Assembly: GCA_005804965.1 (NCBI GenBank)
Contig: SYOC01000311.1
Coordinates: forward strand, 1 to 60,249
Reading direction: 5' to 3'
DNA: 60,249 nt
Source: Pseudomonadota bacterium
Lineage (GTDB): Bacteria; Desulfobacterota; Binatia; Bin18
Shown here: piece by piece, positions 23,732-41,408 of the stretch
Numbering within the stretch: position 1 is the first letter of the stretch
How the letters are laid out: each line of letters opens with the position of its first letter
Program-made: the position numbers and the translations under genes
Notes under the pieces: generated by a model
Database searches by the model: none
What the model was told of the DNA's origin: nothing
The model's input: only the letters and a program-made list of their open reading frames with translations

Positions 23732-24664
23732 TCAGTCAAACCCGATTCGTTCATCAAGCAAATAGAGCGGACGCTGTTTCACCTCTTCGTACACGCGCCC
23801 GAGGTACTCACCAATAATGCCCAGCGCGACCAATTGCACGCCACCTAAAAAAAGCACGGCGACCATGAGCGAGGTCCACCCCGGCACTGTCTGCGTGGTA
23901 AAAAGCCGCAAGATGATCGCATACACGGCATAGAGAAAACTGAGTACGGAAATACTCACCCCCAGATACGTAGCAACTTGCAACGGCGCGAACGAGAACG
24001 CCGTCAAGCCGTCGAGTGCGAATTTGAGCATTTTGCGCAGCGGATATTTCGTCTCTCCAGCCATGCGTTCTTTGCGAGTGTAGGTCACGCCGGTCTGCCG
24101 GTACCCGACCCAGCTCACAAGCCCACGCACGAAGCGGCTGCGCTCACGCGCGGATTGCAGCGCATCTACCGCCCGCCGACTCATGAGGCGAAAGTCGCCA
24201 GTATCAAGAGGAATATCCACTTGCGTCATAGCTCGTAGCAGACGATAGAATACCGCTGCCGTCCCTAGCTTGAAGGCACTCTCACCTTCCCGTTTATCGC
24301 GCACAGCATAGACGACGTCGTAGCCTTCTCGCCATTTATCGAGCAGTTGTGGCAATACCTCTGGCGGGTCTTGCAAATCCGCATCCATCACTATGACGGC
24401 TGCGCCTGTAGCTTGATCAAGGCCACAGGTAATCGCTGTCTGATGGCCGAAATTACGCGAGAGGCTCACCACTTTCACGTGAGAATCATCAGTATGGAGA
24501 CGCTTCAGCGAGGCAAGGCTCCCATCGCGACTGCCATCGTTCACGAACACGATCTCATACGCCTCGCCATACGCGCCCAGCACTTCGCTCAGACGCTGAT
24601 ATAAGATGGGCAGGATTTGCTCTTCATTGAAGACGGGAATAACAACAGAAACAGTCGGTGGCAC
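23732..24664 (-). CDS. GT2 polyprenyl-phosphate glycosyltransferase (ArnC / Dpm1-like)
   Basis: VSVVIPVFNEEQILPILYQRL...YEIVFVNDGSRDGS...VMDADLQDPPE plus two C-terminal TM helices is the typical ArnC/GtrB architecture. Confidence 0.85.
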   Translation of the reverse strand: MPPTVSVVIPVFNEEQILPILYQRLSEVLGAYGEAYEIVFVNDGSRDGSLASLKRLHTDDSHVKVVSLSRNFGHQTAITCGLDQATGAAVIVMDADLQDPPEVLPQLLDKWREGYDVVYAVRDKREGESAFKLGTAAVFYRLLRAMTQVDIPLDTGDFRLMSRRAVDALQSARERSRFVRGLVSWVGYRQTGVTYTRKERMAGETKYPLRKMLKFALDGLTAFSFAPLQVATYLGVSISVLSFLYAVYAIILRLFTTQTVPGWTSLMVAVLFLGGVQLVALGIIGEYLGRVYEEVKQRPLYLLDERIGFD

Positions 24665-24706
24665 TCAGGTTCTCCCTTTCGATTACAAACGTCTCAGGGC
24701 ATCCCG

Positions 24707-26878
24707 TTAAGAGGAGGGTTCACGCGCAGGAGCAGAAGGAGCAATGGCACCGATGGCTGCGCGCGACCCACCTTCATCGAGCGTCACTTCCGCAGGCGCA
24801 TTGGTAATGGCGAGACGAGTGCCGGAGTCACGAAAAAAAACGCCGACGCGCAGGGCAAGGCTTTCCTCAGAGAGATGTTTCGGCAGAAAGTAGAGATCCC
24901 GGTCTTTCAGCAGCGCACCTGGTAGCCACCACGAGGTCGGGTAGCGTCCCCGCGCCGGCGCATGATCCCAGTTCGTACGCGTCTGCGGCTCTGCATCCGC
25001 CGTAACGTGGACGAACATATGATAATCCTTCGTCAACGTCTTCAGCGCTCGCCAATAATACGTCACCACAAAGGCATGCCCTCGTGTCAGCGTCCCTTTG
25101 TCTTCCAGGTCGTAGCCAACTAACTCCAGCTCATCACCAAAACGCACCGGCGTGGAAAAGCGGAAAGACGGCTCGTCGGGAGCCGTTAGGTCGACTTGCC
25201 GCTCGTACAAGATCGCTTCCGAGCCATCCGGTAAAGGAAAACGCGGCGTTACTTCGGCAAAGCCGGATTCAGGAGAACGTAAAAAAGCGAGGATCTCGTC
25301 GTTGTAGGTCGTCAGCCAGCGCTCGCCCGGGCTGCCCGTCTTCACTACCGCAAAATCCACGCCTTGTAGGTGGATGCGATATTCCGGCCCTTCGGAAAAA
25401 CGCGGATCGCCAGGATGTGTCACACCGACCGGAAGCTGCAGCAAGGTCGTGAAATAGGTAAAGGTGCTGGCATTCAACAACGGAGCATCGGGGATGATGC
25501 CGAGCACCGCCGGGCGGGCCATCGTCCGTCTATCGTCGAGTCCCAGCGACCCTCCTACGACACGTTGCAAAATCTCCGCTATCGGCCAGTGTTCTTGTTG
25601 GGGCAAGGCGAAATAGGGCGCAGATTCGGGAGACCCTTGCCGGAGGAGAGCAAGACGCGGTAACGCTTCATGGAGCGAGATCTCAATCAGACCGGGCAAA
25701 GCCCGCCACCCGTACGAGGCGAGCCAAAATTGCATGAGGAGTAACACCACGACTCCACCGCCAGCAAAGCTTCGCCATTTCGACTTGGGGACAAAAGCGC
25801 TGCCCCAGGCGGCAACCACTGCCATAGCCGGCAGAACAGGCGTGATGTTTTTCTGATCTTGCGAGGGCAAGGTCGAGAAAAAAAGATAGGCAACAGCAAT
25901 CGAAACGAACAACAGGACAAAGCCGTGGAGTGCACTAGAGGGAGCGGCGATTTTCTGCCTAGCGAATGCCATTCGGTTATGCCACAGCAAGGCCACACCT
26001 GCGAGAAACAGCCCCAGCCCAACGAGCGTCAAATGCCCATTCACAAACCCAATGCCATACGACGCCAACGCCTGCCACGTGAATGGGTTCGAAGGACCAT
26101 AGCCGACCGCTTCCTCACCGTAGGCAGCGCTGAGCGAACGCGCGATAAGCGGCTTGAGATTGAGCAAATACCATGGTGCTGCCACCAGCGCCGCAATGCC
26201 CAGGGAAGGCACGAGATAGCGTCCGAGTCGTGGCGGCCCAGACTTTGAGCGTCCGAGTATCAAACCTCCGCCCTTCCATATCGCCCATACACTCACGCTC
26301 AAAGGTCCGATTAAAAAAATCGGAAAGAACGCACGACACAACCACCCCAACCCCAAGGTCACGCCCAACGCGACTGAGGGCCATTTGTGAGCAAACCCTT
26401 CCGTCCGCACTAACCAGTACAGCGCAGCGGCAACCAACGCCGTGTTCCAAAAATCGAAGAGAAATATCCGTGAGAGCCCGAATGCCGCCGGATAGGTTGC
26501 GACGAAAAAAGCGGCAAGAACCCCAGTGGCCGGTGAACGCAGCCGTGCACCCAAACCATAAGTAGCCAATACCAGGATGACAAATGCAATCAGGTTGATC
26601 GACAAAGCCGCGCTTGCCGATTTGCCGAAGAGGAAATACGTCGGCACGGCTAGGAGCGGCAAGAATGGTGGTCGCGAGCGATCAACCGACAGCACGGAGG
26701 TGAAGAACCCGGAGAGTCCGTCCTCAAAAAGTGCCTCGTGATATTTGAAGCTGGAAGTGAGATACGCAGCGTCGTCCCAGCGTGGCGGACGAGTGTCAAT
26801 ATGGAGCCAGAGCAGATTAGCAATGAGGCTCCCGGCAATAATCATCCCCAACCACAAGCGGGGCGAACGTACATTCAC
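24707..26878 (-). CDS. ArnT/PMT-like (GT39/GT83-type) membrane glycosyltransferase with a ~300-aa C-terminal soluble extension
   Basis: The N-terminus LWLHIDTRPPRWDDAAYL is followed by more than 10 TM helices, giving a PMT_2-like layout. It lies adjacent to the ArnC-like gene. Confidence 0.7.
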   Translation of the reverse strand: MNVRSPRLWLGMIIAGSLIANLLWLHIDTRPPRWDDAAYLTSSFKYHEALFEDGLSGFFTSVLSVDRSRPPFLPLLAVPTYFLFGKSASAALSINLIAFVILVLATYGLGARLRSPATGVLAAFFVATYPAAFGLSRIFLFDFWNTALVAAALYWLVRTEGFAHKWPSVALGVTLGLGWLCRAFFPIFLIGPLSVSVWAIWKGGGLILGRSKSGPPRLGRYLVPSLGIAALVAAPWYLLNLKPLIARSLSAAYGEEAVGYGPSNPFTWQALASYGIGFVNGHLTLVGLGLFLAGVALLWHNRMAFARQKIAAPSSALHGFVLLFVSIAVAYLFFSTLPSQDQKNITPVLPAMAVVAAWGSAFVPKSKWRSFAGGGVVVLLLMQFWLASYGWRALPGLIEISLHEALPRLALLRQGSPESAPYFALPQQEHWPIAEILQRVVGGSLGLDDRRTMARPAVLGIIPDAPLLNASTFTYFTTLLQLPVGVTHPGDPRFSEGPEYRIHLQGVDFAVVKTGSPGERWLTTYNDEILAFLRSPESGFAEVTPRFPLPDGSEAILYERQVDLTAPDEPSFRFSTPVRFGDELELVGYDLEDKGTLTRGHAFVVTYYWRALKTLTKDYHMFVHVTADAEPQTRTNWDHAPARGRYPTSWWLPGALLKDRDLYFLPKHLSEESLALRVGVFFRDSGTRLAITNAPAEVTLDEGGSRAAIGAIAPSAPAREPSS

Positions 26879-26897: not shown

Positions 26898-29210
26898 TCA
26901 GGATGCTTTGTCTCGCAAAAGCATGCGTTTCACCCGATCTTTCAAGGACAAGAGCCCCGGGAGCTTCCAATGAAGCGCGGCTTGGTAATAGGGCAGTGCT
27001 AGCCGACGCAAAGAGAAATAGGCCAAGGTGCGCCACGAGTCACTGTGTGGGTCAAGCAGATGCGGCGGCAGTAAGAAGCGCTCTTCACGTCCGGTGGAGC
27101 GCCAGAGTCCATCGGCGACTGTCCACAACCGCTGATACTCGATGGCTTGCGCCGCGCAGATTTGCCCAATTTCGCGACTTGGCGGGACGTGCGGGTGGGC
27201 CTCGTGCAGGCGGCGAAACTCGCGTAACAGCCCGTCCATGCGCTCGCCCATCTGTTCCAAACGGAACCCAGCTTCGATGCGCTGCCGTGCGGCGTGTCCC
27301 ATGCGTCGCAAGCGCTCCGGGTCACGCAACAGCGCAGCAAGCGTCTGCGCATACGCCTCAGCTTCAGCCGCTTCCTCACTGCGCGGCAGCAACACGCCGC
27401 ATTCCGGCGTCACCAGCTCGCGCTGTCCGCCAACATCTGCCCCGACCACCGGCACGGCGCAGGCCATAGCTTCATAGATCGACAGGGCAATGCCTTCCCA
27501 CTGCGAAGGCAAGAAGAACACATCGACAGCAGTCATGAGATCACGCACCCGCTCGCTGGATACCGCACCGAGCATATGCACAGTCGCCTGCAAACCATGG
27601 CTTTTCACAAAAGCACGCAGCCAGTCGCCATCAGGACCATCACCAGCAACCAGTGCCTGCAACGGAATACCACTACGCACAAGATGGAGCATCGTTTGCG
27701 CGAAAACTCGCGGCTGCTTCTGCTCGCACAAGCGTCCGGCGTAGAACACCACTGGCGTTTCGTTGGACAAATGCAGTTCGTGTCGCACCTGCGCACGCCG
27801 TTCAGCATCAGGTCGCCAGCGTTCGGGATCGGCATTGGTGTAGCAAGAGTGAATGCGCTGGGGATCGGCACCACGCGCTCCCATCCACCGCTTCAAATGC
27901 TCTGACGTTACGACGTTGCCGTCCAGCAAACTTTGATACTCATATGCGAAGCGCGGATGCCCGCCGTTTTTCCATTCTTCCTCTTCCATATGGCAGAGAT
28001 CGACAAAGGTCACATGCGGACAGTGCGCCCGCAAATACGGCAACAGCAAATAGCCCAACTCACTATTCGAGATCAACACCACGTCGACCTGGCGCGACTG
28101 AATCAGGTAGCGCAAGAAGCGCGGATAATCGACCAAGCGTAAAAAATGCTGGAGCACGAAGATGTCCGGCGTACGGCGGGCAAACGCTGGCAACCAGGAA
28201 TGATCGCCCTCTAACGTCGTAGCAATGGAAACCTCCCAGCCACGGCGGGTCAGTTGCCCCAGGAGGTCCAGATTAAATTTGTCCGCTCCGCCTAAGGTCA
28301 GCCAGGGGACGATCATCAACAGGCGAGGCGCCTCTTTCTGCAAGAGATTGTCGTAAGGTAATGTCGCAGGGACCGTATCGCAGGGCATGTGCCACCGTGG
28401 CTGAATCTGCGGAAATCCACCATTCCAGAGAGACGAATAACGTTGCCGGAGACTGGTAGAAAATGCGCGTTGTCGATCACCGTTATCCCAATTCGTCCAA
28501 CGGTCGCCATGGCGCGGGTGCCGCCGATACCAATCCAAGTACTCGGGTACGGTGCCACCCCAATATCCAGCATGAGCGCAACGCAACCAGAAATCCCAGT
28601 CTTCGAGTCCAGCCCGGTTTTCTTCTTCATAGCCCTGCACGGCGGCATGCACCGCCGTACGAATAGCACCGGTAGCAGCGATGAGGTTTTCTTCGAGAAA
28701 AGCGCCGCCATCGTGAAAACCACGCGTCCACAGATACTCTTGAGCGCCGAATCCCACAGTGAAACCTTTGACGAAAGAGAACTCCGGGTACGATTCGAGG
28801 AACCATACCCATTTCTCCACCGCCGTAGGCTCCAACAAATCGTCGCCATCGAGTTGCACCACATACGGGGCGCACGCCGCCCGAAACCCGGTATTGCGCG
28901 CTGCACTCAGTCCTTTGTTGACCTCGTGGTCGAGCACGCGAATACGGGGATCACAGTCACGATATACGTCCAGCAAGGCAAGTGACTCAGCATCGGTGGA
29001 GCCGTCGTTGACGATCAACCACTCCCATTGTTGCATCGACTGCTGGAGTACGGACTGTGCCGTTTCACGAAACACGGCTCCAGTATTATAGAAGGGCGTG
29101 ACAATCGTGACCGCCGGTGGTGTGGTTGGATCTGCTGGCGCGTATAAAAACGACGGACGCTGCGGATCTATTGGAGTATTGGTGTAATCCGGCTGGACAG
29201 GGTCAATCAT
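26898..29210 (-). CDS. Bifunctional glycosyltransferase (N-terminal GT2 + C-terminal GT4 domains)
   Basis: The GT2 part is VTIVTPFYNTGAVFRETAQSVLQQSMQQWEWLIVNDGSTD...QLDGDDL. The GT4 part is ...FLPSQWEGIALSIYEAMACAVPVVGADVGGQRELV. It is a paralogue of 29293..32145. Confidence 0.85.
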   Translation of the reverse strand: MIDPVQPDYTNTPIDPQRPSFLYAPADPTTPPAVTIVTPFYNTGAVFRETAQSVLQQSMQQWEWLIVNDGSTDAESLALLDVYRDCDPRIRVLDHEVNKGLSAARNTGFRAACAPYVVQLDGDDLLEPTAVEKWVWFLESYPEFSFVKGFTVGFGAQEYLWTRGFHDGGAFLEENLIAATGAIRTAVHAAVQGYEEENRAGLEDWDFWLRCAHAGYWGGTVPEYLDWYRRHPRHGDRWTNWDNGDRQRAFSTSLRQRYSSLWNGGFPQIQPRWHMPCDTVPATLPYDNLLQKEAPRLLMIVPWLTLGGADKFNLDLLGQLTRRGWEVSIATTLEGDHSWLPAFARRTPDIFVLQHFLRLVDYPRFLRYLIQSRQVDVVLISNSELGYLLLPYLRAHCPHVTFVDLCHMEEEEWKNGGHPRFAYEYQSLLDGNVVTSEHLKRWMGARGADPQRIHSCYTNADPERWRPDAERRAQVRHELHLSNETPVVFYAGRLCEQKQPRVFAQTMLHLVRSGIPLQALVAGDGPDGDWLRAFVKSHGLQATVHMLGAVSSERVRDLMTAVDVFFLPSQWEGIALSIYEAMACAVPVVGADVGGQRELVTPECGVLLPRSEEAAEAEAYAQTLAALLRDPERLRRMGHAARQRIEAGFRLEQMGERMDGLLREFRRLHEAHPHVPPSREIGQICAAQAIEYQRLWTVADGLWRSTGREERFLLPPHLLDPHSDSWRTLAYFSLRRLALPYYQAALHWKLPGLLSLKDRVKRMLLRDKAS

Positions 29211-29243: not shown

Positions 29244-29270
29244 GGCACTGCTGGACCAGCCAGCAGTGCC
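29244..29270 (-). other. Strong intercistronic hairpin (11-bp stem, 5-nt loop)
   Basis: ggcactgctgg-accag-ccagcagtgcc lies between the two paralogous GT genes. No U-tract follows it on the transcribed strand. Confidence 0.4.
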
Positions 29271-29292: not shown

Positions 29293-32145
29293 TTATTTCT
29301 CAACGAGGCCGAAGCGTTTTCCGAGCCGCCCCCAGAGGCTTTGCCGGTAGCGAGCTGCCTCAGCTTGCCAGTAATCTTGTTGCGCCTCCGCGCGTATCAG
29401 CGATTGTTCTAACTGGCGCATCATGAGTTGTTGCTCGTGGAGCGTACGTTCTCGTTCCTCCACAGCAGCACGCCAGCGCTGGACTTGTTCCTCCAACCAC
29501 GCCTTGCCGCGTTCAAGTTCGCTCGCCCAGGTCTGTTGTTCATGGAGCAGGCACTCGCGTTCTACGGCTGCGGCTCGCCAGTTCTGCGCCTGCTCTTCCA
29601 GCCACGCCTTGCCCCGCTCTAACTCGTGCGTCCACGCTCGTTGCTCCCGTAGCAAACGCTCCCGTTCCTCAGCGGCAGCACGCCAGCTCTGCACCTGTTC
29701 TTCCCACCACACCTTGCTCTGCTCCAGCTCACCAACCCACTGCTGTTGCTCGTGCAAGAGTCGCTCGCGTTCCTCGGCGGCAGTGCGCCAATTCTGCACC
29801 TGTTCTTCCAGCCACGTCCGACCGTGTTCCAACTCGCCAATCCAGGCTTGTTGTTCCCGTAGCAAACCCTCCCGCACCTCGGCGGCAGTGCGCCAATTCT
29901 GCACCTGTTCTTCCAGCCACGTCCGACCGTGTTCCAACTCGCCAATCCAGGCATACAAGGTCTGCGAGAAGTCGTGGCGGTCCTGCGGACGAGCCTGTTG
30001 TTCCGGCAGCGCACGCTCTCGCTGGAGATGTTCGCTCCACAGTCCGTCTGCAGCTTCGGCAAGGCGAGTGTACTCGATGGCGCGCGCGGCACAGAGGAGC
30101 GCCACCCCGCGACTCGGCAGTGGACGCAAGGCTTCAGTTCGCAACCGCGTTGCTTCATGGAGCGCTTCCACCAAACGGTCTCCCATTTGCTCCAAACGAA
30201 AATGTTCCTCAATCCTCCGGCGGCTTGCCACCCCCATCGCTTGGCAGCGTGATTGATCTTGTACCAGATCGCTCAAAGCAGCCACGTACGCGAAGGCTTC
30301 AGTTTCTTCGTCGCTCTTGGCGATGAGTATCCCACACTCGGGAGTGACCAGCTCGCGTTGCCCACCAACGTCGGTACCGACAATTGGCACCCCGCAGGCC
30401 ATGGCCTCATAAACAGCAAGGGCAATGCCTTCCCACTTCGAGGGTAAAAAGAAAATGTCGGCGGCCGCAAGGAGTTCACGCACTTGCGCATTGGGCAAGG
30501 CTCCCAATAGTCGCAGTCGGTCGCCGAGCCCTTCTTGCCGTATGAAGGCTTCTACCCCTTCCCGCTCCGCGCCATCGCCGACCACCAACGATAAGAAAGG
30601 CGTTTGCCGTTGAGCAAGTTGCCGCACGGTCTGCGCCAGCATGGCCGGCGCTTTCTCGGCATCAAGGCGGCTGACAGACAGGATGACGGGAGTTTCCTCA
30701 TGCACTCCCAACCTCTGCCGCACGACGTAGCGTTGCTGCGGATCGGGACGCCAGTCGTTCGCATCAATGTTGATGTGACAGACACGAATGCGGCTCTGGT
30801 CAGCACCCCGCTGCACCATCCACTCACGCAAATGTGCGGAAGCAACAAGATTGAGGTCGAGCAACTCTTGATGTTCCACCGCCATGCGCGGATAGCCGCC
30901 ATTTTTCCAGTTCTCGGCCTCGGCATGACAGAAATCGAGAAAGGCCACCTCCGGGCACGCTGCCCGGAGATAAGGAAGCAGTTGATATCCCAACTCGCTA
31001 TGCGACACCATGACTACATCAATGCTGCGAGACACGATGAGGTAACGCAGGAAGCGGGGATAATCCGTCAGCCGCAGAAAGTGCGGTAGCACAAAAATAT
31101 CCGGCGTCACGCGTGCGAATTGCGGAAGCCACGGTTGCTCGCCTCTCAAGGTCGTGGCGATTGTCACCTCCCAGCCGCGCTCGCTCAGTTGACTGATCGC
31201 ATTCAAGTTAAACTTGTCGGCACCACCGATCGCCAACCACGGAGCGATGAGCAAGAGCCGAGGCCGGTCTTTACGCAGACGGTTGGCGCACGGCAAAACC
31301 TCCGACACTGAATCGTTCGGCATGTGCCAGCGCGGCTGAATACGTGGAAATTCTCCTTCCCACAAACTCGGGTAGCGCCGCCGTAGTTGTTCACGAAAGG
31401 CTTGCCATTGCCCAGTCTCGTCTAGGTTGGCCCAACGGTCGCTGTGTGTTTGCCGGCAGCGATACCAAACGAGATATTCGGGCACCGAGGCACCCCAATA
31501 ACCCAAACTGGCACAGCGCAGCCAGAAGTCCCAGTCTTCTCCGCCAGCACTAATGGTCTCGTCATAACCGCCAACTTCTCGATGGACAGCAACACGCACC
31601 ATGCACTTATTGTCGATGACGTTTTGCTGCAGAGCAGTGACGCCATCGTGGAAACCGCGTGGCCACAGATATTCCCTGCCTTCAAAACCAACGGAATAGG
31701 AACCAGCAAAAGCGAACTCGGGATAACTCTCAAGAAACCAAAACCACTTTTCTACGGTAGTGGGCTCGAGCAAGTCATCGCTGTCGAGCTGCACGACGTA
31801 GGGCGTGCGGGCAGCAGCGAACCCGGTGTTACGCGCAGCACTCAAGCCTTTATTGACGTTGTGGTCGATCACGCGAATGCGTGGATCGCCCGAGCGATAG
31901 GGTTCCAGCAGCGCTAACGCCTCCGGGTCGCTAGAGCCATCGTTGACAATCAGCCACTCCCACTGTTGGAAGGATTGCTGCAGAACGGAACGTGCCGTTT
32001 CCAGAAACACGGCTCCGGTGTTATAGAAAGGCGTGACGATCGTCACTGCTGGTGGCACATCGCTTGCCAGTGGGGCATGCAGAAACAACGGACGCTGCGC
32101 ACTGGCTGGAGTATTCGTATAGTCTGGGCGTTCGGGGTCGATCAT
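29293..32145 (-). CDS. Bifunctional glycosyltransferase (GT2 + GT4) with a C-terminal coiled coil of five tandem 35-aa units
   Basis: ORF 29293..32211. The likely start is ATG 32145 (MIDPERPDYTNTP, parallel to the paralogue's MIDPVQPDYTNTP), which forms an ATGA overlap with the upstream gene. GT2 and GT4 motifs are as in the paralogue. The C-terminus is (EQQAWIGELEHGRTWLEEQVQNWRTAAEVREGLLR)x5, diverging between units. Confidence 0.85.
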   Translation of the reverse strand: MIDPERPDYTNTPASAQRPLFLHAPLASDVPPAVTIVTPFYNTGAVFLETARSVLQQSFQQWEWLIVNDGSSDPEALALLEPYRSGDPRIRVIDHNVNKGLSAARNTGFAAARTPYVVQLDSDDLLEPTTVEKWFWFLESYPEFAFAGSYSVGFEGREYLWPRGFHDGVTALQQNVIDNKCMVRVAVHREVGGYDETISAGGEDWDFWLRCASLGYWGASVPEYLVWYRCRQTHSDRWANLDETGQWQAFREQLRRRYPSLWEGEFPRIQPRWHMPNDSVSEVLPCANRLRKDRPRLLLIAPWLAIGGADKFNLNAISQLSERGWEVTIATTLRGEQPWLPQFARVTPDIFVLPHFLRLTDYPRFLRYLIVSRSIDVVMVSHSELGYQLLPYLRAACPEVAFLDFCHAEAENWKNGGYPRMAVEHQELLDLNLVASAHLREWMVQRGADQSRIRVCHINIDANDWRPDPQQRYVVRQRLGVHEETPVILSVSRLDAEKAPAMLAQTVRQLAQRQTPFLSLVVGDGAEREGVEAFIRQEGLGDRLRLLGALPNAQVRELLAAADIFFLPSKWEGIALAVYEAMACGVPIVGTDVGGQRELVTPECGILIAKSDEETEAFAYVAALSDLVQDQSRCQAMGVASRRRIEEHFRLEQMGDRLVEALHEATRLRTEALRPLPSRGVALLCAARAIEYTRLAEAADGLWSEHLQRERALPEQQARPQDRHDFSQTLYAWIGELEHGRTWLEEQVQNWRTAAEVREGLLREQQAWIGELEHGRTWLEEQVQNWRTAAEERERLLHEQQQWVGELEQSKVWWEEQVQSWRAAAEERERLLREQRAWTHELERGKAWLEEQAQNWRAAAVERECLLHEQQTWASELERGKAWLEEQVQRWRAAVEERERTLHEQQLMMRQLEQSLIRAEAQQDYWQAEAARYRQSLWGRLGKRFGLVEK
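29437..29961 (-). repeat. In-frame tandem repeat, 5 x 105 bp (35-aa heptad-compatible units)
   Basis: There is a perfect 76-nt direct repeat at 105-nt offset (29772-29847 = 29877-29952). The three further units are progressively diverged. Confidence 0.85.
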
Positions 32146-33449
32146 AGGTCGGTCTTCTGCTCCGGCTCGGAAGGCACGAAAGTTCCCAAGCGGTTTCCCA
32201 ATTTGCCCCATGCGCTGGCACGGTAACGCTCGGCCTCAGCTTGCCACGCACGTCGGCGCTCATCGCTTCGAGCTAGGTTACGCTCCAAAGTTGCAACGCG
32301 TTCACGCTGATTGCTCAAGATCTCTTCTCGTTCGGCAACCGCATGCTGCTCATGTTCCAGTTGCTGCACTGCCCGGCGGTGTTCTTGCGTCAAGTGGTCA
32401 TGCTCCTGTGTCAAGCGACGATGTTCCTGCGCTACACTCTCGGCACGCTCGCCGCGCTCTTCTGCCGTCGTCTGCCAGTGGCGCATTTGTTCCTCAATCC
32501 ACGCTTTCCCCTGCTCCAGCGTCTCCGCCCAACGGCCTCGTTCTTCCGCTGAGCTGCGCCAATTTTCGACTTGTTGTTCGAGCCACAGCTTGTACTGTTC
32601 GAGCTCCTCAATCCGCGCCCTCGCCTTCTGGAGTGCAAAGGCAGCGTCCGTGATGATCCCACCTTCTTCCGACTGCGGCTGCTTGGCCCGATAGAAATCG
32701 AGTGCCCGCTGACGCGCAAGCGCACATTCTTCTTCTCCGCGCCCGAAGCGAAAGAGATGTGAGGCATTCTTCTCGTGCCATCGATAGCGCACCAAGGGTT
32801 GAGCCAGAAAACCCACACGGTTTCCCACACTCAACTTCATCCACATCTCGTAGTCGCACGCATACCCAAGGTCTTCATCGAATCCACCCAGTGCCAGCAA
32901 AGCCTCGCGTCGCGTCACCACCGTCGGGGCACAGATACAGTTCTCATCGAAGAGCAGCTTGCGGAAATAGCGCAGACCGGCAACGACAAAATCCTCCGAC
33001 GCACTCTCCACCCACGTGCGCGGAGTCGTGGGGGCCGTACCATCGCGCACCAGATCAATGGCAGAATGCACGAATCCGATATCGCTCGCATGCGCTAGGA
33101 GTTGGACTTTGTGCGCCAGATTATCCGGCAGCATCACGTCGTCTTGATGAAAAATGGTGAGGAACTCTCCCTGCGCCAAGGCCACGCAGCGATTCCAATT
33201 TCCTGGGATGCCTAACCGGCGTTCGTTCTGATGGACATGGAGTCGGGGATCGGTGAACGAGTGAAGAATCTCCAGCGTGCCATCGCTCGACCCATCATCG
33301 ACCACCACCAATTCGAAATCGGGAAACGACTGCGCCAACACGCTCGTGAGCGCCTCGGCGACAAAAGTCGCGCCGTTATAGGTCGGGATACACACGCTGA
33401 CACGCGCTGGCCGAGTCACGCTGGTTTGTTCTCCGTCCCCGACAGCCAT
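32142..33449 (-). CDS. Glycosyltransferase family 2 with a C-terminal coiled-coil domain
   Basis: VSVCIPTYNGATFVAEALTSVLAQSFPDFELVVVDDGSSDGT...FHQDD. The C-terminal ~170 aa are coiled coil, with LEQ(Y/G)K(L/A)W(L/I)E.Q...W...AEERG x2. An alternative start at GTG 33419 would give a GTGA overlap with the upstream stop. Confidence 0.85.
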   Translation of the reverse strand: MAVGDGEQTSVTRPARVSVCIPTYNGATFVAEALTSVLAQSFPDFELVVVDDGSSDGTLEILHSFTDPRLHVHQNERRLGIPGNWNRCVALAQGEFLTIFHQDDVMLPDNLAHKVQLLAHASDIGFVHSAIDLVRDGTAPTTPRTWVESASEDFVVAGLRYFRKLLFDENCICAPTVVTRREALLALGGFDEDLGYACDYEMWMKLSVGNRVGFLAQPLVRYRWHEKNASHLFRFGRGEEECALARQRALDFYRAKQPQSEEGGIITDAAFALQKARARIEELEQYKLWLEQQVENWRSSAEERGRWAETLEQGKAWIEEQMRHWQTTAEERGERAESVAQEHRRLTQEHDHLTQEHRRAVQQLEHEQHAVAEREEILSNQRERVATLERNLARSDERRRAWQAEAERYRASAWGKLGNRLGTFVPSEPEQKTDL

Positions 33450-34903
33450 CGCATCAGCGGTCGGACAAATTTGTGCGTGAGCGTGCGCAGGCAGGTCTCA
33501 TAGCCACGATACAACTTCCACGTCGTCGAAGCGTAAATCGCATTCAGGCGGGCCTCTCGTTCGCGCAACGTCTGCGAGGTGGCTCGTAACTCATCGTGCT
33601 GGCGCTCGTTCTGTCGCTGCAAAGCCAGGAGTTCATGGTGTTGCGCTACCAAGCGCTGGGGAAGCGTCGCGCCGACACCCGGAGTCGTACACAGTTCATT
33701 GTAGACGGTCTCGATATCGTCGGCATACTCGGCCACGGTTTTGACGGTAGGAGGTCGGCTTTGCAGTTGCACGTATAACTCCGGCTGTTCAAGCAATCGC
33801 GACAAACACCGGCGAAGCTCATCCGTGTTTTCTGGCTCGAATAGCAATCCATTCTCGCCGTCGACCACAGCTTCTGTCAGGGCACCGCGTCGTGCGGCCA
33901 CCACCGGCACACCAGCGAGCAGAGCCTCACGGGTCATGAGTGAAAACGTTTCCTCACAGACGCCGGGCATGACCAACACGTCATGTTGCGCCAAGACTGT
34001 GCCAAGGTCTTCGTGGTCGTACACCCCGCGAAAATGGACCGGAAGCCCAGCCGCAAGTGTAGCGAGGCGGTCAGCATACCACTGCCATCCCGACAGGGCC
34101 ATGCCGTAGAACGACGCCTCGAAGGCGTTGGTCGACAAACCACGCAACGCTTCTAACAAAACATGCGCTCCTTTATGGGGAATGAGGACGCCAACATATA
34201 GGATGCGCAAAGGACGACTGCCATCGTAGAGCACTCGACTTGGCACGACCGGGCGCGGCACCCCGAGCGGCACGGTGCGCAACCGTGGCCCGAGATCTGG
34301 CATGTACTCCAACATGCGCTGCTGCAAAAATCGCGAGGGCACAAGCACAACGTCCGGAGCGTGCAGAGCTTGCTCCATGAACGGGAAGCGATGACGCGCG
34401 GTCTCCGCCGGGACATGTTCTTGCAGGCAGGGCACGCAACGCTCGCCGCGTTCGGGTCCAGCACACAAGCGCTGTTGATCGTCGACCAAGTGGATACGAT
34501 GACACACAAAATAGAAGTCGTGCAGGCTCAACACCGTCGGATAGCCCAGTGCTGTGGCCAGGGGGATCAAGTTCACGGACAGATGCGCGACGTGTTGGAA
34601 GTGTACAACATCCGGACGCAGCCGTTCCAACACTTGCACGAACACGTCGTCGAAAAACGGGTTATCGTAGGTCAATCGCGACGTCGTCGTTTTCGTATAA
34701 TTGTTGACGACAGCGACGATGGGCAGACCGTAGCGTCGCTCTTCGCGTACCGACAATTCTTCGGCAGCCGGGTCGGCAACGCGCAACAGAATCGTCACCT
34801 CGTGGCCGCGCGCCTGTAGGGTCTGCGACAGATGCAAGGTGACAAGTTCTGTTCCGGCCCACGCTTCGGGGGGAAATTCATGCACGACTTGGAGAATGCG
34901 CAT
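33416..34903 (-). CDS. Glycosyltransferase family 4 with a short C-terminal coiled coil
   Basis: ORF 33416..35107 trimmed to ATG 34903 (MRILQVVHEFPPEAWAGTELVTLHLSQTLQARGHEV). It has ...MPGVCEETFSLMTREALLAGVPVV. The C-terminus is LVAQHHELLALQRQNERQHDELRATSQTLREREARL. Confidence 0.85.
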   Translation of the reverse strand: MRILQVVHEFPPEAWAGTELVTLHLSQTLQARGHEVTILLRVADPAAEELSVREERRYGLPIVAVVNNYTKTTTSRLTYDNPFFDDVFVQVLERLRPDVVHFQHVAHLSVNLIPLATALGYPTVLSLHDFYFVCHRIHLVDDQQRLCAGPERGERCVPCLQEHVPAETARHRFPFMEQALHAPDVVLVPSRFLQQRMLEYMPDLGPRLRTVPLGVPRPVVPSRVLYDGSRPLRILYVGVLIPHKGAHVLLEALRGLSTNAFEASFYGMALSGWQWYADRLATLAAGLPVHFRGVYDHEDLGTVLAQHDVLVMPGVCEETFSLMTREALLAGVPVVAARRGALTEAVVDGENGLLFEPENTDELRRCLSRLLEQPELYVQLQSRPPTVKTVAEYADDIETVYNELCTTPGVGATLPQRLVAQHHELLALQRQNERQHDELRATSQTLREREARLNAIYASTTWKLYRGYETCLRTLTHKFVRPLMRWLSGTENKPA

Positions 34904-34932
34904 TGCTTCGTTCTCGGGCTTCGATCCTCTTT

Positions 34933-35904
34933 TTACTGCCGCTTGATGTGTTCTTGTAGCGATAGGAACCGACAGACACCATATGGCAGCCGATCCGCCC
35001 GTTCTCCAAGCCACACACCAAGATTCGCCGCCAAGTGCCAACTCACCGCTGCGACGCCCCATTCTGCCGCCACCCGCGCTCGGCCCGAGCCAGTCGCCCA
35101 ACGCCAAAACGAGAGATCACGCCGTGCCGCACTCACAGCCAAAGGCAAGCAAGAGCGCAAGGTCCGTTGACGCGCTAACACCATCTTTTGAGAGAGCGCC
35201 CAGAAATGGTCGAAGTGACGGCGCAAATTGGGCCACGGTCCGTAGCTGTGCGAATGATACACCAGCGAATCTGCGCAATACGCGGTGCGATACCCAGCTT
35301 CGAGCACCTGCTGCGCCCACAGTTGGTCCTCGCCAAACTCGACCACCGGAAAAGGCCACTGCTCCCAAGTCGTGCGACGGAGGACGGAACTGACGTTGGC
35401 GAAAAAATAATACAGCCCAGGATTCTGGGCATACGCAGGGTTGTCGTGCATACGATTGATGCGCGACTCTGGCTGTCCGGACAATTCTTCCTGCACGATA
35501 CGTCGCCACTCCATCGGATGGCAGTGCGAGCGCGGCAGGTGGCGGCTGAAAGCCCCGACGACGAGATCATCAACCAGCAGCGGAGCAACAAGATGATGCA
35601 GCCACTGCTCGTTGGCTGGCGTCGCATCTTGCGTCAAGAAGACCAGGACATCGCCTTGCGCTTGTGCCGCAGCCAAGTTGCGGGTTTTCCCGTGGCCGAA
35701 CTCGTGCGGCGGAATGCGTATGATCTTCACTTCGTGGCGCTGCAGGATGTCCAACGTGCGATCACGCGAGCCTGAGTCAACCGCGATAATCTCCACGACC
35801 GCGACTGGCCCGGTTTGCGCTTTCACAGATACGAGCAATTCGTCGAGGTAGCGCTCGCCATTTTTCGTCACTAGAAGAATTGAGGCATGTACTTGGCCAC
35901 TCAC
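34933..35904 (-). CDS. Glycosyltransferase family 2
   Basis: ORF 34933..36009. The probable start is GTG 35904, giving a GTGA overlap with the upstream stop. HASILLVTKNGERYLDELLVSVKAQ...IIAVDSGSRDRT...FLTQDA. Confidence 0.8.
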   Translation of the reverse strand: MSGQVHASILLVTKNGERYLDELLVSVKAQTGPVAVVEIIAVDSGSRDRTLDILQRHEVKIIRIPPHEFGHGKTRNLAAAQAQGDVLVFLTQDATPANEQWLHHLVAPLLVDDLVVGAFSRHLPRSHCHPMEWRRIVQEELSGQPESRINRMHDNPAYAQNPGLYYFFANVSSVLRRTTWEQWPFPVVEFGEDQLWAQQVLEAGYRTAYCADSLVYHSHSYGPWPNLRRHFDHFWALSQKMVLARQRTLRSCLPLAVSAARRDLSFWRWATGSGRARVAAEWGVAAVSWHLAANLGVWLGERADRLPYGVCRFLSLQEHIKRQ

Positions 35905-36809
35905 GAAACGAGGTCCCCGTTCTCTGCTAGTGGCTTCCGACACACGATCAGAGCGTTGTCGTGCCACGCCCACATGCGGTTCAGCGCAAAGTCCGCGCGA
36001 GCTGCCCAATCGAGGAATTCTTGCGGCAACGCCGTGTTCCTCTGATGGACATAGGCTTCCAACGCTGCCACGTCTCCACGCGAAGCCAGCCGTAGAGTGC
36101 GCAGCAGCTTGCGATACATCTGCCTCCCCAATTCCCGCAGGCCGGTTGCTGGCTCTTTTCGCCCTGGTTCAGCAGCAAGACTCAAACTCGGCGGCACAAC
36201 AGGTGCCGACGGTGGTGGTATCGCAAACGGTGCCTCGCGCCAGTTGGAAGCGATAACCGAGAGGCCGTAATGGGTGCACACCGATTCAATCAACTCGGGA
36301 TGATAAAAGCGCACGTGTTCAGGGTCGCGCCAGAAGCCGAACAGTTGCATACGAATGGATTCGGGGTTGGGAAACACCAGGACGAAAGTCCCGCCGGGTG
36401 CGAGCCGCTCGCCAATCGCTTCGATTAAACTCAGCACTTTCTCGAACGGCAAATGCTCGATGAAATGCGAACAAAAGACTCCGTCGTAGACATCAGACGA
36501 CTCGGCGAGGAAGGTGAAGACATCCGCCTCGACAACGCTCCCGCCGTGTTCGCGCACGAGGCGCACCGCCTCCGGGTTGCGCTCGACTCCCAGCGCGGGA
36601 ATGCCATTCTCGGCCAGCAATTCCAAGAACAGACCAGGACCACAGGCGAGGTCCAGCACCTGACGGCACCCGCGAAAATGCGCGACATACGGGAGCGACA
36701 ACTCCCGGTTCCAGCGACGATCTCGACATTGCCGCTCGTAATCCGCGTAGTCGAAAGGAGTTCTTAGTTTCTTGCTTGGATCTTTGTCTGCCATGTCTGC
36801 TATTCGCAT
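35901..36809 (-). CDS. Class I SAM-dependent methyltransferase
   Basis: Motif I is VLDLACGPGLFLELLAENG. The TTG at 36854 in the ORF track lies inside the predicted promoter, so ATG 36809 (or 36794) is the more likely start. Confidence 0.8.
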   Translation of the reverse strand: MRIADMADKDPSKKLRTPFDYADYERQCRDRRWNRELSLPYVAHFRGCRQVLDLACGPGLFLELLAENGIPALGVERNPEAVRLVREHGGSVVEADVFTFLAESSDVYDGVFCSHFIEHLPFEKVLSLIEAIGERLAPGGTFVLVFPNPESIRMQLFGFWRDPEHVRFYHPELIESVCTHYGLSVIASNWREAPFAIPPPSAPVVPPSLSLAAEPGRKEPATGLRELGRQMYRKLLRTLRLASRGDVAALEAYVHQRNTALPQEFLDWAARADFALNRMWAWHDNALIVCRKPLAENGDLVS

Positions 36810-36839
36810 TCGCTTCGCCGTAAGCGGAGATGCCGAGCG

Positions 36840-36868
36840 AATATAAAAGGGCAATGGTCAGTGGTCAA
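36840..36868 (-). promoter_or_regulatory. Sigma-70-like promoter for the methyltransferase/GT operon
   Basis: The minus strand reads TTGACC (36868-36863), a 17-nt spacer, then TATATT (36845-36840). It sits directly downstream of the defence islet. Confidence 0.5.
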
Positions 36869-36946
36869 CCAGCAGCAGTCAGCAGGGCCAATCATTGAGA
36901 AAAGGTGCAAGCAAGAATAGAGTAAGCCGTCTGTTGATAGCAGTGC

Positions 36947-37117
36947 TCAATCGTGTGCAGCTTCAGCGAGTACCTCGGTCGCCCATTGATTGAGGCTCTT
37001 GCCAGCAGCCTGCGCAGCAACTAAGGCCGCACCATGCACCTCTGGCGGCACACGCAACATGAACTTGCCGGATGCAGGCTTCTCAGGACGAATTCCTTGT
37101 TCCTTTTCCACTTTCAT
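36947..37117 (-). CDS. Ribbon-helix-helix protein of the short HicB/Arc-like antitoxin type (56 aa), with no adjacent toxin gene
   Basis: Below the 60-aa cut-off of the ORF track. My translation is MKVEKEQGIRPEKPASGKFMLRVPPEVHGAALVAAQAAGKSLNQWATEVLAEAAHD. The 'GKFxLRxPxxxHxxLxxxAxxxGxSLNQW' pattern is typical of short RHH antitoxins. Confidence 0.6.
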   Translation of the reverse strand: MKVEKEQGIRPEKPASGKFMLRVPPEVHGAALVAAQAAGKSLNQWATEVLAEAAHD

Positions 37118-37176
37118 AAAAATCTATTGCTTTACGCTTCATCCAATACCTTTTCAGCAGAAGATGCCCGATGGCG

Positions 37177-38229
37177 TCAGTCGGAGACGTCATCGGGAAG
37201 GTCTTCCTGATCAGCATCGACGAAATCACCGGTACGCTCAACTCGGAGCTTGTCATTGCCGACCTTGAACTCGACATGCCCGTCATCGCCTATCCGCACT
37301 GTCATCGGTGGCAACAGGTCAGAAGCATCGCTCAACAGTGCGGCAAGGGGTTGCCGAACGTATCGCTCCAGAAATACGCTCATCACTGGCCCGGCCTGAG
37401 CTTCGAGGTGCTGCCAAGCTGAGTCGCCAACGAATGTCTGGCCGCTGGCTTCGTCAAACGCCTTGACGAGTTCCGTGAGCTTAGGGTTGGGAGTCGGATC
37501 AAGGACGACCAACACCGGAGTGAAGCCCGACTCGACGCAGTCGATTGGAAATTGGAGTTCTTCCCCCCACCGACCCTGGCCCGACGCTGCGATGGTCACG
37601 CGCATCTTAAATTCGTAGGCCAACTTCTGCTTCACACAATCGACTTGGCGGCCCTTCCCTCGGTCGTGCTGCCGTTTCACTGGGCTTCTCTTCGCGCTCA
37701 CCGGCGTGCCGCCGATGGCGTTCGCTAGGATTGGCTCGAACAGGTATCCCGTCTCCTGAGCCGCTCGATTGTCCAAGTCGTAGAGCCACTTTCGCCAGTA
37801 CAGCATGCCCGCGAGCGCCGGAGATGGCATGCTACCGAATTGCAAGAGTCCGCGAGGGCCAACTTGATCGAAGGTGGGAAATGCCTGTCGCTGCAGGATC
37901 TGCTCATACTTCAGACGGCTCTTGTGCAGGGTTGCCAAGCACGAGAAGTATGTGTCCGAGTCAGGCTTGAGGGCGAACACCTTCGCGGCCAAGTCCTCGA
38001 AGGGGATCCCCGCCAATGCGAGAGAAGAGACCGGCCAAGTCTCAAAGAACGGAGGAACGTATTGAGGGATCTCGGGAATTTTGGAGACGAGGTTGAGGTC
38101 TTTGACGACGACACTGCAGAGATAAGCACAGACCTCAGAAGAGAGAGGTACGGCCATATCGCTGTTGCCCACGTTGCGTGCCTTCTCAATGAGCGTCTTC
38201 TGGGCGAGCGTTAGTTTGTACGTTGTCAT
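37177..38229 (-). CDS. Putative type II restriction endonuclease (PD-(D/E)xK candidate)
   Basis: ATGA overlap (38226-38229) with the upstream C5-MTase gene. GRQVDCVKQKLAYEFKMR supplies a D...ExK arrangement. No other family signature was recognised. Confidence 0.6.
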   Translation of the reverse strand: MTTYKLTLAQKTLIEKARNVGNSDMAVPLSSEVCAYLCSVVVKDLNLVSKIPEIPQYVPPFFETWPVSSLALAGIPFEDLAAKVFALKPDSDTYFSCLATLHKSRLKYEQILQRQAFPTFDQVGPRGLLQFGSMPSPALAGMLYWRKWLYDLDNRAAQETGYLFEPILANAIGGTPVSAKRSPVKRQHDRGKGRQVDCVKQKLAYEFKMRVTIAASGQGRWGEELQFPIDCVESGFTPVLVVLDPTPNPKLTELVKAFDEASGQTFVGDSAWQHLEAQAGPVMSVFLERYVRQPLAALLSDASDLLPPMTVRIGDDGHVEFKVGNDKLRVERTGDFVDADQEDLPDDVSD

Positions 38230-39482
38230 TGGTCCTGTCCTGCTTGCGCAGTCTTGGCATCCGCAAACAGAAGAAGCTGTTGGGATCGAGTAAGGGTGCG
38301 ATATCTGCTTTCGACGGCCTCAACGGCTTTCTGAAGCGCTGGACTCATGCCGGTTGAGTTCGTTGGTACGAAGCTCTTCAGGCCTGGGTCCGACCTCCGG
38401 TTTATCACCTCGCGGAACGCACGGGTCAGGTGAGCAGCGATTGCGTTTGCGAAACGAGGAGGCACGGCATTGCCGATGAGAAGCGCTCGTTGCGCCTGCG
38501 TACCAGCGAACTCAAAGTCGTCTGGAAAGGTTTGGAGCCGCGCACACTCGCGAAGAGTCAGGTTGCGATGTGCGGTCGGATGAACGAACTCGGAAGTCGC
38601 TCCGCTGGTGATCGCTTTCGAAGGCAGATTCGGTTCGAGCCGCCGAAGCCCGGAGGGTGCGCCACCTCTACGTTCTGTTGGGGTCCCGTCCATCACCCTC
38701 CTGAAGGCACGGCGTCGGTAGGTCTCATGCCAGAGTTCCTCCGGAATGTCCTTCATGATTTGGCCAACACCAAGTGCCTCGAAACGAAGGCGGTCCATCT
38801 CATTGGGCGGACGGGAGCAGTGATCCGAAACGGCGGCGGTTTCTGGATCGTCAGCCGCAGGTGGCAGGCCCGCGAGTGCCTGCATAACGCTGTCGCACCA
38901 TGGGAGGTTGCCCGCAACGAGGTCTGCCCCAGGAGCACCAGTGGCACGATGTGTCGCTTCAGGAAATCCGGGGTCCCAACCAAGACCGCCAATCGCCAAC
39001 ACCCGCTTGCGGTGTTGCGGAACACCGTAGTTGGCAGCATTCACTTTGCGAAGGTGAATGCAGTAGCCAGCTTTTACAAGCGGAGCAAGCAGGTCGGTCA
39101 CCCATCGACCACCCTCGCCAGTCAGGAAGCCTTCGACGTTCTCGAAAACGAAGGCCCTGGGTCGATGTCGCTCTACAAGGTAAGCGAAGACCGCCACAAG
39201 CGTGTTGCGAGCATCACCCGGCTTCCGCAAACCGGCCGACGAGAAGCCCTGACATGGAGGGCCGCCAATGATGATATCGGACGAAGGCAGCACGGTGTTC
39301 CAGTCGAGCTTTATCTCTTCGATGTGGCCTCCCATGTTCTTCTTGTACGTTTCCACCGCAGCCGGAAACGCATCGGCTGCCCAGACGAGATTGAAGCCCT
39401 GAGCGCGGAATCCCAATCCCATCCCGCCAGCACCACAGAAAAGGTCCACCACTGTCCGGCCTCGTCTTGCATCCATGTCCAA
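38226..39482 (-). CDS. dcm: DNA (cytosine-5)-methyltransferase
   Basis: All classical C5-MTase motifs are present: I DLFCGAGGMGLGF, IV GGPPCQGFS, VI FVFENV, VIII QHRKR, IX REC.RLQTFPD and X GNAVPP. Confidence 0.92.
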   Translation of the reverse strand: MDMDARRGRTVVDLFCGAGGMGLGFRAQGFNLVWAADAFPAAVETYKKNMGGHIEEIKLDWNTVLPSSDIIIGGPPCQGFSSAGLRKPGDARNTLVAVFAYLVERHRPRAFVFENVEGFLTGEGGRWVTDLLAPLVKAGYCIHLRKVNAANYGVPQHRKRVLAIGGLGWDPGFPEATHRATGAPGADLVAGNLPWCDSVMQALAGLPPAADDPETAAVSDHCSRPPNEMDRLRFEALGVGQIMKDIPEELWHETYRRRAFRRVMDGTPTERRGGAPSGLRRLEPNLPSKAITSGATSEFVHPTAHRNLTLRECARLQTFPDDFEFAGTQAQRALLIGNAVPPRFANAIAAHLTRAFREVINRRSDPGLKSFVPTNSTGMSPALQKAVEAVESRYRTLTRSQQLLLFADAKTAQAGQDQ

Positions 39483-39836
39483 TCGCTGCTCCTTCTCGTC
39501 TCCGCTTCACATCGCACGGGGTTTCCCACCCCAACCACGAAGTCGAGGCTATTGAATTGCGGACCTGCGATGGTCAACCCTACGAGTCGGTAGGGCTTGA
39601 TGTCAAGAGAGAAGTTTTACCACGGGCAAACGCGGAGAACTCGGGCATTCCAAGGCCAGGAGCAACAAAAGACAGACGAGGTGGGCTATATTTAGGAACA
39701 ACGTCTGAGTGGGAAGCTATGGAAACTCGCTCGAAATGGGCAAGGTTCAAGCCACTTCCAGCGACAGCCTTTCAAGTCTAGGAGATGAGACCAGAGAGGT
39801 CTTCAGCGTGGCCCGAGCAGAAGCGGCAGATCCTAG

Positions 39837-40268: not shown

Positions 40269-40271
40269 GTG

Positions 40272-40490: not shown

Positions 40491-40593
40491 TCAGGTACGG
40501 TCACACACAAGGGTACGATTGGCAAGACCAGGTTAGAGCCGTCCATCAGGATTTTCTCACGACAGGCTCTGCTACTGCTGCGGCGGAATCAAA

Positions 40594-41391: not shown

Positions 41392-41408
41392 TGGCAGGGG
41401 CACACTGC

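Follow-up and report, generated by a model that had tools for sequence, protein, structure and literature searches.

Coiled-coil rulers are an accepted means of length control in polysaccharide pathways that depend on an ATP-binding cassette (ABC) transporter, and most work on them has used insertions and deletions engineered into a small number of enterobacterial proteins. WbdD and WbbB are such rulers in Wzm/Wzt pathways (PMC11231755, PMC5082667). In systems where Wzt carries a carbohydrate-binding domain (CBD), coil length was shown experimentally to set chain length, and wherever such a system has been characterised, the far end of the coil bears a terminator or a late-acting enzyme (PMC11231755). 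FutA and FutB of Helicobacter pylori carry 1 to 17 C-terminal tandem heptads followed by amphipathic helices, and the number of heptads varies within strains by slippage or recombination (PMC2583950). Repeat number correlates with the size of the fucosylated O-chains, and the repeats are described as an "enzymatic ruler" (Nilsson et al. 2006, as quoted in PMC2583950). The stretch analysed here, called the window, is a contig of 60,249 nucleotides (nt) from an uncultured Pseudomonadota bacterium (SYOC01000311.1, assembly GCA_005804965.1; GTDB lineage Desulfobacterota, Binatia, Bin18). It encodes a 950-residue enzyme with GT2 and GT4 glycosyltransferase (GT) domains and a C-terminal stalk of five tandem units. 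By analogy with the systems above we lean, with modest confidence, towards reading this as a heptad-quantised coiled-coil stalk that holds the GT2+GT4 pair at a set height and acts as a ruler.

Among described systems, the window stalk appears to be most closely analogous to that of FutA/FutB. Both combine a GT domain with a C-terminal heptad-based repeat stalk and a short basic or amphipathic end, and in both, slippage or recombination makes closely related strains differ in repeat number, although the strain-level case in our data may reflect a collapse in assembly. They also share the proposed ruler logic, in that the repeat number would decide which chain lengths are acted on. However, the unit of FutA/FutB has seven residues and no resemblance to the 35-residue Trp-rich unit of the window, and their catalytic part belongs to GT10 rather than to GT2+GT4, which makes them analogues and not members of one family. 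The context differs as well, since the window stalk is far longer (about 235 residues) and stands in a Wzm/Wzt-CBD pathway of an uncultured environmental bacterium. An earlier note on this DNA had taken a copy-variable repeat ruler on a GT for a new variation, yet FutA/FutB are a known precedent (PMC2583950). Literature searches on tandem-repeat coiled-coil polysaccharide rulers gave nothing relevant beyond the WbdD and Klebsiella papers.

WbdD of Escherichia coli O9a and Klebsiella pneumoniae O3 and O5 shares with the window enzyme the N-terminal catalytic domains and the extended coiled coil, as well as a locus with Wzm and a CBD-bearing Wzt; its C-terminal anchoring region has a candidate counterpart in the window enzyme. 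Its stalk of about 20 nm (PMC5082667) is of a similar order to the approximately 33 nm predicted here, and methyltransferases carry the window's module in other species. In contrast, WbdD is a kinase and methyltransferase, whereas two GTs sit distally in the window enzyme; the two show no sequence similarity, a PDB sequence search with the window tail having found no coil of a glycan enzyme, and a tandem repeat with natural copy-number variation is not described for WbdD (PMC11231755, PMC5082667). WbbB (K. pneumoniae O12 / Raoultella), ORF6 of K. pneumoniae O7 and ORF7 of K. pneumoniae O4 resemble the window in their multi-module glycan assembly with a coil between enzyme modules. O4 ORF7, a single GT with a C-terminal coil, is also like a 435-residue GT2 of the window (PMC11231755). 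In WbbB and ORF6 the coil lies between the terminator and polymerase modules of one polypeptide, whereas the window coil is terminal and three separate enzymes each have their own coil of a different length.

A WbbB-like internal module was found in only one relative, a Chloroflexota metagenome-assembled genome (MAG; contig JAEWYL010000132.1, L036). There the module (around 1220-1255) precedes a linker rich in Pro and Ala, after which comes a methyltransferase-like domain at the C-terminus. Such an arrangement is WbbB/ORF6-like, unlike the C-terminal module position in Binatia.

The ruler concept is already known, and on sequence grounds the window stalk is homologous to neither the WbdD nor the FutA/FutB prototype. 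What is new here is a stalk cassette absent from domain databases, a length evolution in heptads only, three different stalks in one locus, and a near-identical pair of sequences one unit apart. The long gene and its parts are:

29293 to 32145, minus strand: gene of the GT2+GT4 enzyme with repeat stalk, 950 residues (open reading frame (ORF) list, gene callers, ATGA overlap)
31609 to 32043, minus strand: GT2 (GT-A) catalytic domain, residues 57-201 (Pfam PF00535, E 6e-27; AlphaFold2 predicted local distance difference test (pLDDT) >90)
30217 to 31230, minus strand: GT4 (GT-B, retaining type) domain, residues 328-665 (Pfam PF13439 and PF00534, E 4e-33)
29314 to 29985, minus strand: single continuous predicted alpha-helix, 224 residues (743-966), ~33 nm (AlphaFold2, tail alone)
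29437 to 29961, minus strand: five tandem 35-residue (105-nt) units, residues 751-925 in 972-residue numbering (Tandem Repeats Finder, unit alignment)
29877 to 29952, no strand assigned: perfect 76-nt repeat, copy in unit 1 (exact identity with 29772-29847)
29772 to 29847, no strand assigned: perfect 76-nt repeat, copy in unit 2 (exact identity with 29877-29952; own unitig in run X1)
29335 to 29436, minus strand: degenerate sixth unit with the terminal coil, residues 926-959 (orthologue of a relative's last coil segment)
29296 to 29334, minus strand: conserved C-terminal motif WGRLGKRFGLVEK, basic and hydrophobic, a candidate anchor to the membrane or to a partner (fixed heptad phase)

The units are part of a wider, unannotated Trp-rich module that is absent from domain databases. 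Its consensus is E-x3-W-I-x-E-L-E-x-G-K-A-W-L-E-E-Q-x-x-N-W-Q-x-x-A-E-E-R, and a second form of it has R for the first x after E-E-Q. Across 150 database proteins, neighbouring modules are spaced by 35 residues (46 times), 28 (11), 42 (4), 70 (4), 56 (3), 105 (1) or 140 (1), so that 70 of 72 spacings are multiples of seven, and the two off-phase ones are 45 and 52. A conserved W-(G)-R-L-G-x-R-L motif closes most of these proteins. Between the core Leu of the module and the Trp of this tail motif, the distance takes the values 19, 26, 33, 40, 47, 54, 61, 68, 89 and 96 residues, and is 5 modulo 7 in 33 of 34 proteins. At the catalytic end, an invariant Trp lies 20, 27 or 34 residues from the first module in ten of the 11 properly aligned GT2+GT4 sequences. 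These counts include some close relatives, with more than 20 sequences being independent. The strict seven-residue steps therefore indicate one heptad register along the whole rod, from enzyme to tail, which is kept while the length varies. Such a single register is a requirement of a left-handed coiled coil and argues against a free single alpha-helix. We regard the quantisation, as read from these alignments, as the strongest new result.

In the GT2+GT4 family the rod ranges from about 88 to 235 residues, the window's being the longest. The window locus and its relatives form a natural length series within one enzyme family, in heptad steps. They offer natural length variants for tests of the ruler model outside Enterobacteriaceae, a sequence signature to find stalk-bearing glycan enzymes in metagenomes, and modular parts for the glycoengineering of chain length.

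When the tail was modelled alone (251 residues), AlphaFold2 predicted a helix over positions 22-245 of the fragment, with 162 residues at a pLDDT of at least 90. In the model of the full protein (mean pLDDT 85.5, from a 99-sequence alignment) the GT-A and GT-B domains are predicted with confidence and the tail is entirely helical. A profile of 57 units from many proteins shows a hydrophobic heptad core, with a positions at 6, 13, 20, 27 and 34 and d positions at 2, 9, 16, 23 and 30. The residues of this seam are I6, L9, L16, W23, A27 and L/I34, and several g positions are hydrophobic too. Together, the 224-residue helix, the a/d seam and the heptad quantisation identify a predicted extended coiled coil in this assembly enzyme, as the earlier note had proposed for the tail. 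No known family covers the tail: Pfam and NCBIfam scans gave only weak generic coiled-coil cross-hits (ATG16, CENP-F, SMC, Rad50), and a PDB sequence search with the tail gave one marginal, irrelevant match and no coil of a glycan enzyme.

Two other readings of the tail were considered and rejected. The full-length model has one low-confidence break in the tail, at residues 798-806; a real break was rejected as a fold-back artefact of the monomer, the tail-only model being one unbroken helix. The idea that each unit is a helical hairpin turning at the conserved Gly-Lys was discarded as well, as neither AlphaFold2 model breaks the helix there.

The five 35-residue units of the earlier note were reproduced with the same coordinates and unit sequences, and so was the perfect 76-nt repeat shared by units 1 and 2, whose identity ends after exactly 76 nt and does not continue beyond either edge. 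Tandem Repeats Finder reports a period of 105, 4.8 copies and 75% matches for the array. All remaining unit pairs have 62-75 matches per 105 nt, and at about 70% identity the probability of 76 consecutive matches is ~2e-12. The 29 nt that separate the two 76-mers, as well as the unit edges, diverge strongly between units 1 and 2; because of this divergence, the 76-nt identity suggests gene conversion, or older units arranged in a mosaic, and not a simple fresh duplication of 105 nt. The note's description of the modules as identical does not hold, as the units are 59-82% identical at the DNA level. Its further proposal that the unit number changed recently, and can change again, stands insofar as copy number is labile (five units here, four in a congener, four in a near-identical MAG), but the array does not look like a clean fresh 105-nt duplication. 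An ORF of 277 residues (29423-30256, plus strand) crosses the repeat region on the other strand. Rich in Ser, Cys and Arg, it mirrors the repeat and is almost certainly a by-product of repeat composition and not a gene.

Copy number was compared among relatives as follows:

Window (this study): 5 units
L001 (GCA_016197285.1), same gene order, catalytic part 82% identical in nt: 4 units
L022 (GCA_005778255.1), protein P0271 of 915 residues, two single-nucleotide polymorphisms (SNPs) in 10.7 kb: 4 units
More distant homologues and relatives that carry the module: 1 to 5 units, with none in the common form of about 770 residues

Between the window and the congener L001 the first and last units are orthologous (84 of 105 nt). 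The degenerate sixth unit of the window and the fifth of L001 match at 84 of 105 nt, the same level as the catalytic part (82%). The internal units, on the other hand, have been homogenised separately in each lineage, with 76 perfect nt between units 1 and 2 of the window and 96 of 105 nt between units 3 and 4 of L001. The L022 protein P0271 equals P0001, the cluster representative of the window protein, minus a clean loss of 35 residues; at the DNA level this is a 105-nt deletion exactly between both 76-nt repeats.

Read-level evidence came from Logan unitigs (k=31) of the public run X1. In this run the 76-mer forms a unitig of depth 10, a bridge unitig (29818-29906) has depth 5 and the flanks have 6.6. 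The unitig graph has the shape expected of two tandem 76-mer copies, and the unitig depths of X1 give no sign of more than two copies, the bridge depth being at or below that of the flanks. At one of the two SNP sites X1 holds the alternative allele, so more than one strain is present; at the other site the unitig breaks. The four-unit form has no unique 31-mers, so unitigs of this k cannot separate an allele from a collapse, and the chances are about evenly divided between a real L022 allele, arisen by recombination or slippage between the 76-mers, and an assembler collapse. Copy-number variation at the species level is independent of the status of this allele.

A phmmer search of 1.84 billion representative proteins gave 269 matches at E <=0.001. 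Modules occur in versions of 28, 35 or 42 residues and in one to at least seven copies, almost always near the C-terminus; near-perfect arrays include four identical 42-residue units (P0133) and about nine 28-residue units (P0146). Of 81 scanned carriers, 21 have an N-terminal GT2 domain, 19 a S-adenosylmethionine (SAM) dependent methyltransferase, eight a GT4, three a pyruvyltransferase, three a sulfotransferase and one a carbamoyltransferase. Enzymes of these classes build and cap glycans. In a set of 40 relatives, the module was present in 15 of 25 searched genomes of the same family, the window's own counted, and absent from all 16 genomes that belong to other families of the class. A wider locus search with a degenerate DNA pattern for ELExGKAWLEEQ matched 16 contigs, 11 of them labelled Candidatus Binatia and one each Blastocatellia, Chloroflexota and Thermodesulfobacteriota. 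Two Lachnospiraceae matches were out of frame and were rejected as due to chance. The module is mostly found in Candidatus Binatia.

Partial-unit duplications were seen in two Binatia chromosomes (L030 and L035). One of 10 residues breaks the heptad phase (spacing 45), and one of 21 residues keeps it (56). From their sequences, these duplications look like snapshots of slippage.

The long gene is embedded in a polysaccharide locus, whose tabulated genes are all on the minus strand:

43377 to 44663, minus strand: Wzt ABC ATPase with C-terminal carbohydrate-binding domain (Pfam ABC_tran; Wzt_C below cutoff)
41409 to 43097, minus strand: NodU/CmcH-type carbamoyltransferase, candidate capping enzyme, no coil (Pfam PF02543 and PF16861)
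40594 to 41463, minus strand: Wzm ABC-2 permease (Pfam PF01061)
about 36.8 to 40.6 kb, minus strand: inserted islet between wzm and the methyltransferase/GT genes
38226 to 39482, minus strand: C5 DNA methyltransferase in the islet
35901 to 36854, minus strand: SAM-dependent methyltransferase, candidate capping enzyme, no long coil (Pfam; tail sequence)
34933 to 36009, minus strand: GT2
33416 to 35107, minus strand: GT4 with a coil of about 57 residues
33419 to 33691, minus strand: short coiled-coil tail (~57 residues) and basic C-terminus of this GT4 gene (weak generic Pfam cross-hits)
32142 to 33449, minus strand: 435-residue GT2 with a coil of about 150 residues
32145 to 32666, minus strand: coiled-coil tail of the 435-residue GT2, with two 28-residue units of the Trp-rich module, ending in WGKLGNRLG
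26898 to 29210, minus strand: coil-less 770-residue GT2+GT4 paralogue, candidate membrane-proximal polymerase (Pfam)
24707 to 26878, minus strand: GT-C/PMT_2 membrane protein, 723 residues
23732 to 24664, minus strand: polyprenyl-phosphate glycosyltransferase, PgfS/ArnC-like, E 7e-88

An ABC exporter is present, with ABC2_membrane and ABC_tran matches in Pfam and TagH and Wzt matches in NCBIfam. The Wzt of the window scores 27.1 bits against a Wzt_C cutoff of 30.4 in Pfam; homologues that are 73% identical carry PF14524, and full-length A. aeolicus Wzt (7k2t, 8dku) is matched by the family profile from one end to the other (E 1e-94). By sequence, this Wzt thus carries a C-terminal CBD, whose reading of a cap at the chain end is putative. 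Wzm, the CBD-bearing Wzt, the methyltransferase and the carbamoyltransferase are the locus hallmarks that the earlier note had listed, and all of them were found. The linkage extends beyond the window, as the module lies 6-16 kb from a CBD-bearing Wzt in all eight genomes whose contigs allow the test.

For the long gene, the longest ORF from the first ATG spans 29293 to 32211 on the minus strand (972 residues). The ATG at 32145-32143, which gives the 950-residue form, overlaps the stop codon of the upstream GT2 gene as ATGA, and this form is preferred by gene callers (P0001/P0270) and by alignment with the paralogue. The ORF from 32145 and the Pfam domains agree with the GT2+GT4 enzyme with C-terminal repeats described before. 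In view of the ATGA overlap, the two genes are probably translationally coupled. A GT-A and a GT-B domain (Pfam, AlphaFold2, Foldseek) place the protein in CAZy families GT2 and GT4, and its GT4 part matches the retaining GT-B enzymes PimB', MshA, BshA and HepE at E ~1e-20 (Foldseek). Among about 1,000 homologues, the coil-less form of about 770 residues is the commonest.

Some homologues (among P0006, P0007, P0019, P0035, P0045 and P0090) are 1450-1530 residues long and resemble two GT2+GT4 enzymes fused end to end. The tandem paralogue pair of the window occurs elsewhere, in these relatives, as a single polypeptide.

We propose the following model for the stalk. From the GT4 end to the W-G-R-L-G motif, it would form a parallel coiled coil of about 235 residues and 33-35 nm, built from the Trp-rich module, that probably oligomerises the enzyme. 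Its C-terminal end would be anchored to the membrane or to a membrane-proximal assembly complex, as we infer from WbdD and FutA/FutB. Polyprenol-linked chains would then become substrates only once their length allows them to reach the catalytic pair, and the enzyme would serve either as a late-acting or terminating enzyme or as the polymerase of a second block; the site of action of the coil-less 770-residue paralogue would be close to the membrane. Whole units would be gained or lost when units undergo unequal recombination, slippage or gene conversion; each of them would amount to about 5 nm, keep the register and retune the chain length of action.

The earlier note had placed the ruler on the polymerase itself. 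Since the far-end enzyme of characterised coils is a terminator or late-acting (PMC11231755), the long enzyme is, by analogy, more likely the distal, late-acting one, and its paralogue the membrane-proximal polymerase.

The long enzyme and the 435-residue GT2 have a closing sequence in common, W-Q-A-E-A-x-R-Y-R-x-S-x-W-G-(R/K)-L-G, and their modules stand in the same phase before the tail Trp, at 201, 166, 131, 96 and 61 residues in the former and at 131 and 103 in the latter.

Several points weigh against the ruler model. The AlphaFold2 models are of the monomer only. The four-unit L022 allele may be an assembly collapse, the depths of 5 and 10 against 6.6 fitting a mixture but being noisy. 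The distal enzyme looks like a two-module polymerase and not like a classic terminator, so a terminator role is a guess, and the methyltransferase and carbamoyltransferase of the locus carry no coil. The case for membrane binding is weak: the W-G-R-L-G tail is basic but only borderline amphipathic (muH 0.70, a value reached by 5% of shuffles), the tails of relatives are not significantly amphipathic, and the congeneric GT2 orthologue is without the tail motif. Strong conservation of the non-core positions W15 (c), Q19 (g), E10, E17 and E18 is more than a passive spacer needs. Finally, the organism is uncultured, and any effect on glycan length is putative.

Among the alternatives, the one that survives best is that the stalk merely oligomerises or tethers the enzyme, its length not being measured and the gain or loss of units being near-neutral drift within the heptad phase. 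We consider this rather unlikely. Any coiled coil needs heptad quantisation to fold, ruler or not; the common homologues of about 770 residues and the adjoining paralogue work without a coil; the congeneric GT2 lost 70 coil residues along with its tail motif; and the repeats of FutA/FutB are also needed for dimerisation and stability (PMC2583950). However, about 235 residues far exceed what dimerisation needs, and three enzymes of one locus have clearly different stalk lengths. Moreover, the module sits on capping-type enzymes beside CBD-Wzt exporters, the very context in which coil length experimentally sets chain length (PMC11231755).

The change in length of the GT2 stalk can be described more closely. 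The 435-residue GT2 is 70 residues (ten heptads) longer than its 365-residue orthologue in L001 (8907-10004), which is without the last coil segment and WGKLGNRLG and keeps the final ~13 residues. It is a second stalk of the locus that has changed in length, in frame.

The conservation of the unit surface leads to another explanation, in which partner enzymes or the nascent glycan would dock on each unit, and copy number sets valency or stoichiometry instead of, or besides, distance. W15 (c), Q19 (g), E10, K13, E17 and E18 are almost invariant across proteins less than 50% identical, and Trp, Gln and Glu are typical sugar-binding residues. In WbdD the membrane-proximal coil recruits the polymerase, and stoichiometry affects chain length, according to work cited in PMC11231755. 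In addition, the upstream GT2 shares with the long enzyme the module, the tail motif and the phase between the two. On the other hand, partner or glycan binding is putative, the regular expression used to collect units forced several positions and inflated their apparent invariance, and conservation may reflect concerted evolution and cassette exchange. This leaves docking as improbable in our judgement. Equally doubtful is a broader version, in which the graded and possibly hetero-oligomeric set of stalks (about 57, 150 and 235 residues) would form a multi-tier assembly line, with a unit surface that docks or tracks the glycan and a unit number that sets both height and valency. The three GT coils of the locus share the heptad phase and related C-terminal motifs, which would suit such tiers. 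If true, the exchange and expansion of cassettes would be a general and fast-evolving way to reprogram block-polysaccharide architecture in Binatia and other uncultured bacteria.

That the tail is a stable single alpha-helix of the ER/K type, a spacer and not an oligomeric coiled coil, is very improbable. The AlphaFold2 monomer is indeed one straight high-confidence helix and E, R and Q abound in the units (EERERLL, for instance), but the hydrophobic a/d seam with Leu, Ile and Trp is conserved, and strict seven-residue steps fit the 3.5-residue repeat of a coiled coil and not the 3.6 residues of a free helix. An assembly artefact in the repeat number of the window can practically be dismissed: the perfect 76-nt repeat breaks k=31 unitigs and a near-identical contig has one unit fewer, but the five-unit form occurs in two separate assemblies (an 82,982-bp ENA contig and the present 60,249-bp contig, with proteins differing by one amino acid), a unitig of X1 spans the unique 29-nt bridge, and the 76-mer unitig is deeper than its flanks (10 against 6.6).

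Further features of the locus and of its relatives are as follows. The islet at 36840-40593, with its C5 DNA methyltransferase and small genes, interrupts the glycan operon, and the corresponding edge in L001 has HNH-like and unknown small genes. Two Wzt-family matches in two relatives (G023:C14:244332-245510 and G015:C2:13574-14218) contain an in-frame TGA, perhaps because the gene is a pseudogene or the sequence has an error. The long gene and its coil-less paralogue are separated by 82 nt, which include a hairpin at 29244-29270 on the minus strand (GGCACTGCTGG ctggt CCAGCAGTGCC; perfect stem of 11 bp, loop of 5 nt) with no T-run after it, whereas the genes of the congener overlap by 4 nt instead. 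The pairing of the polyprenyl-phosphate GT with the GT-C protein (23732-26878) suggests an extracytoplasmic side-chain glycosylation of the same glycan.

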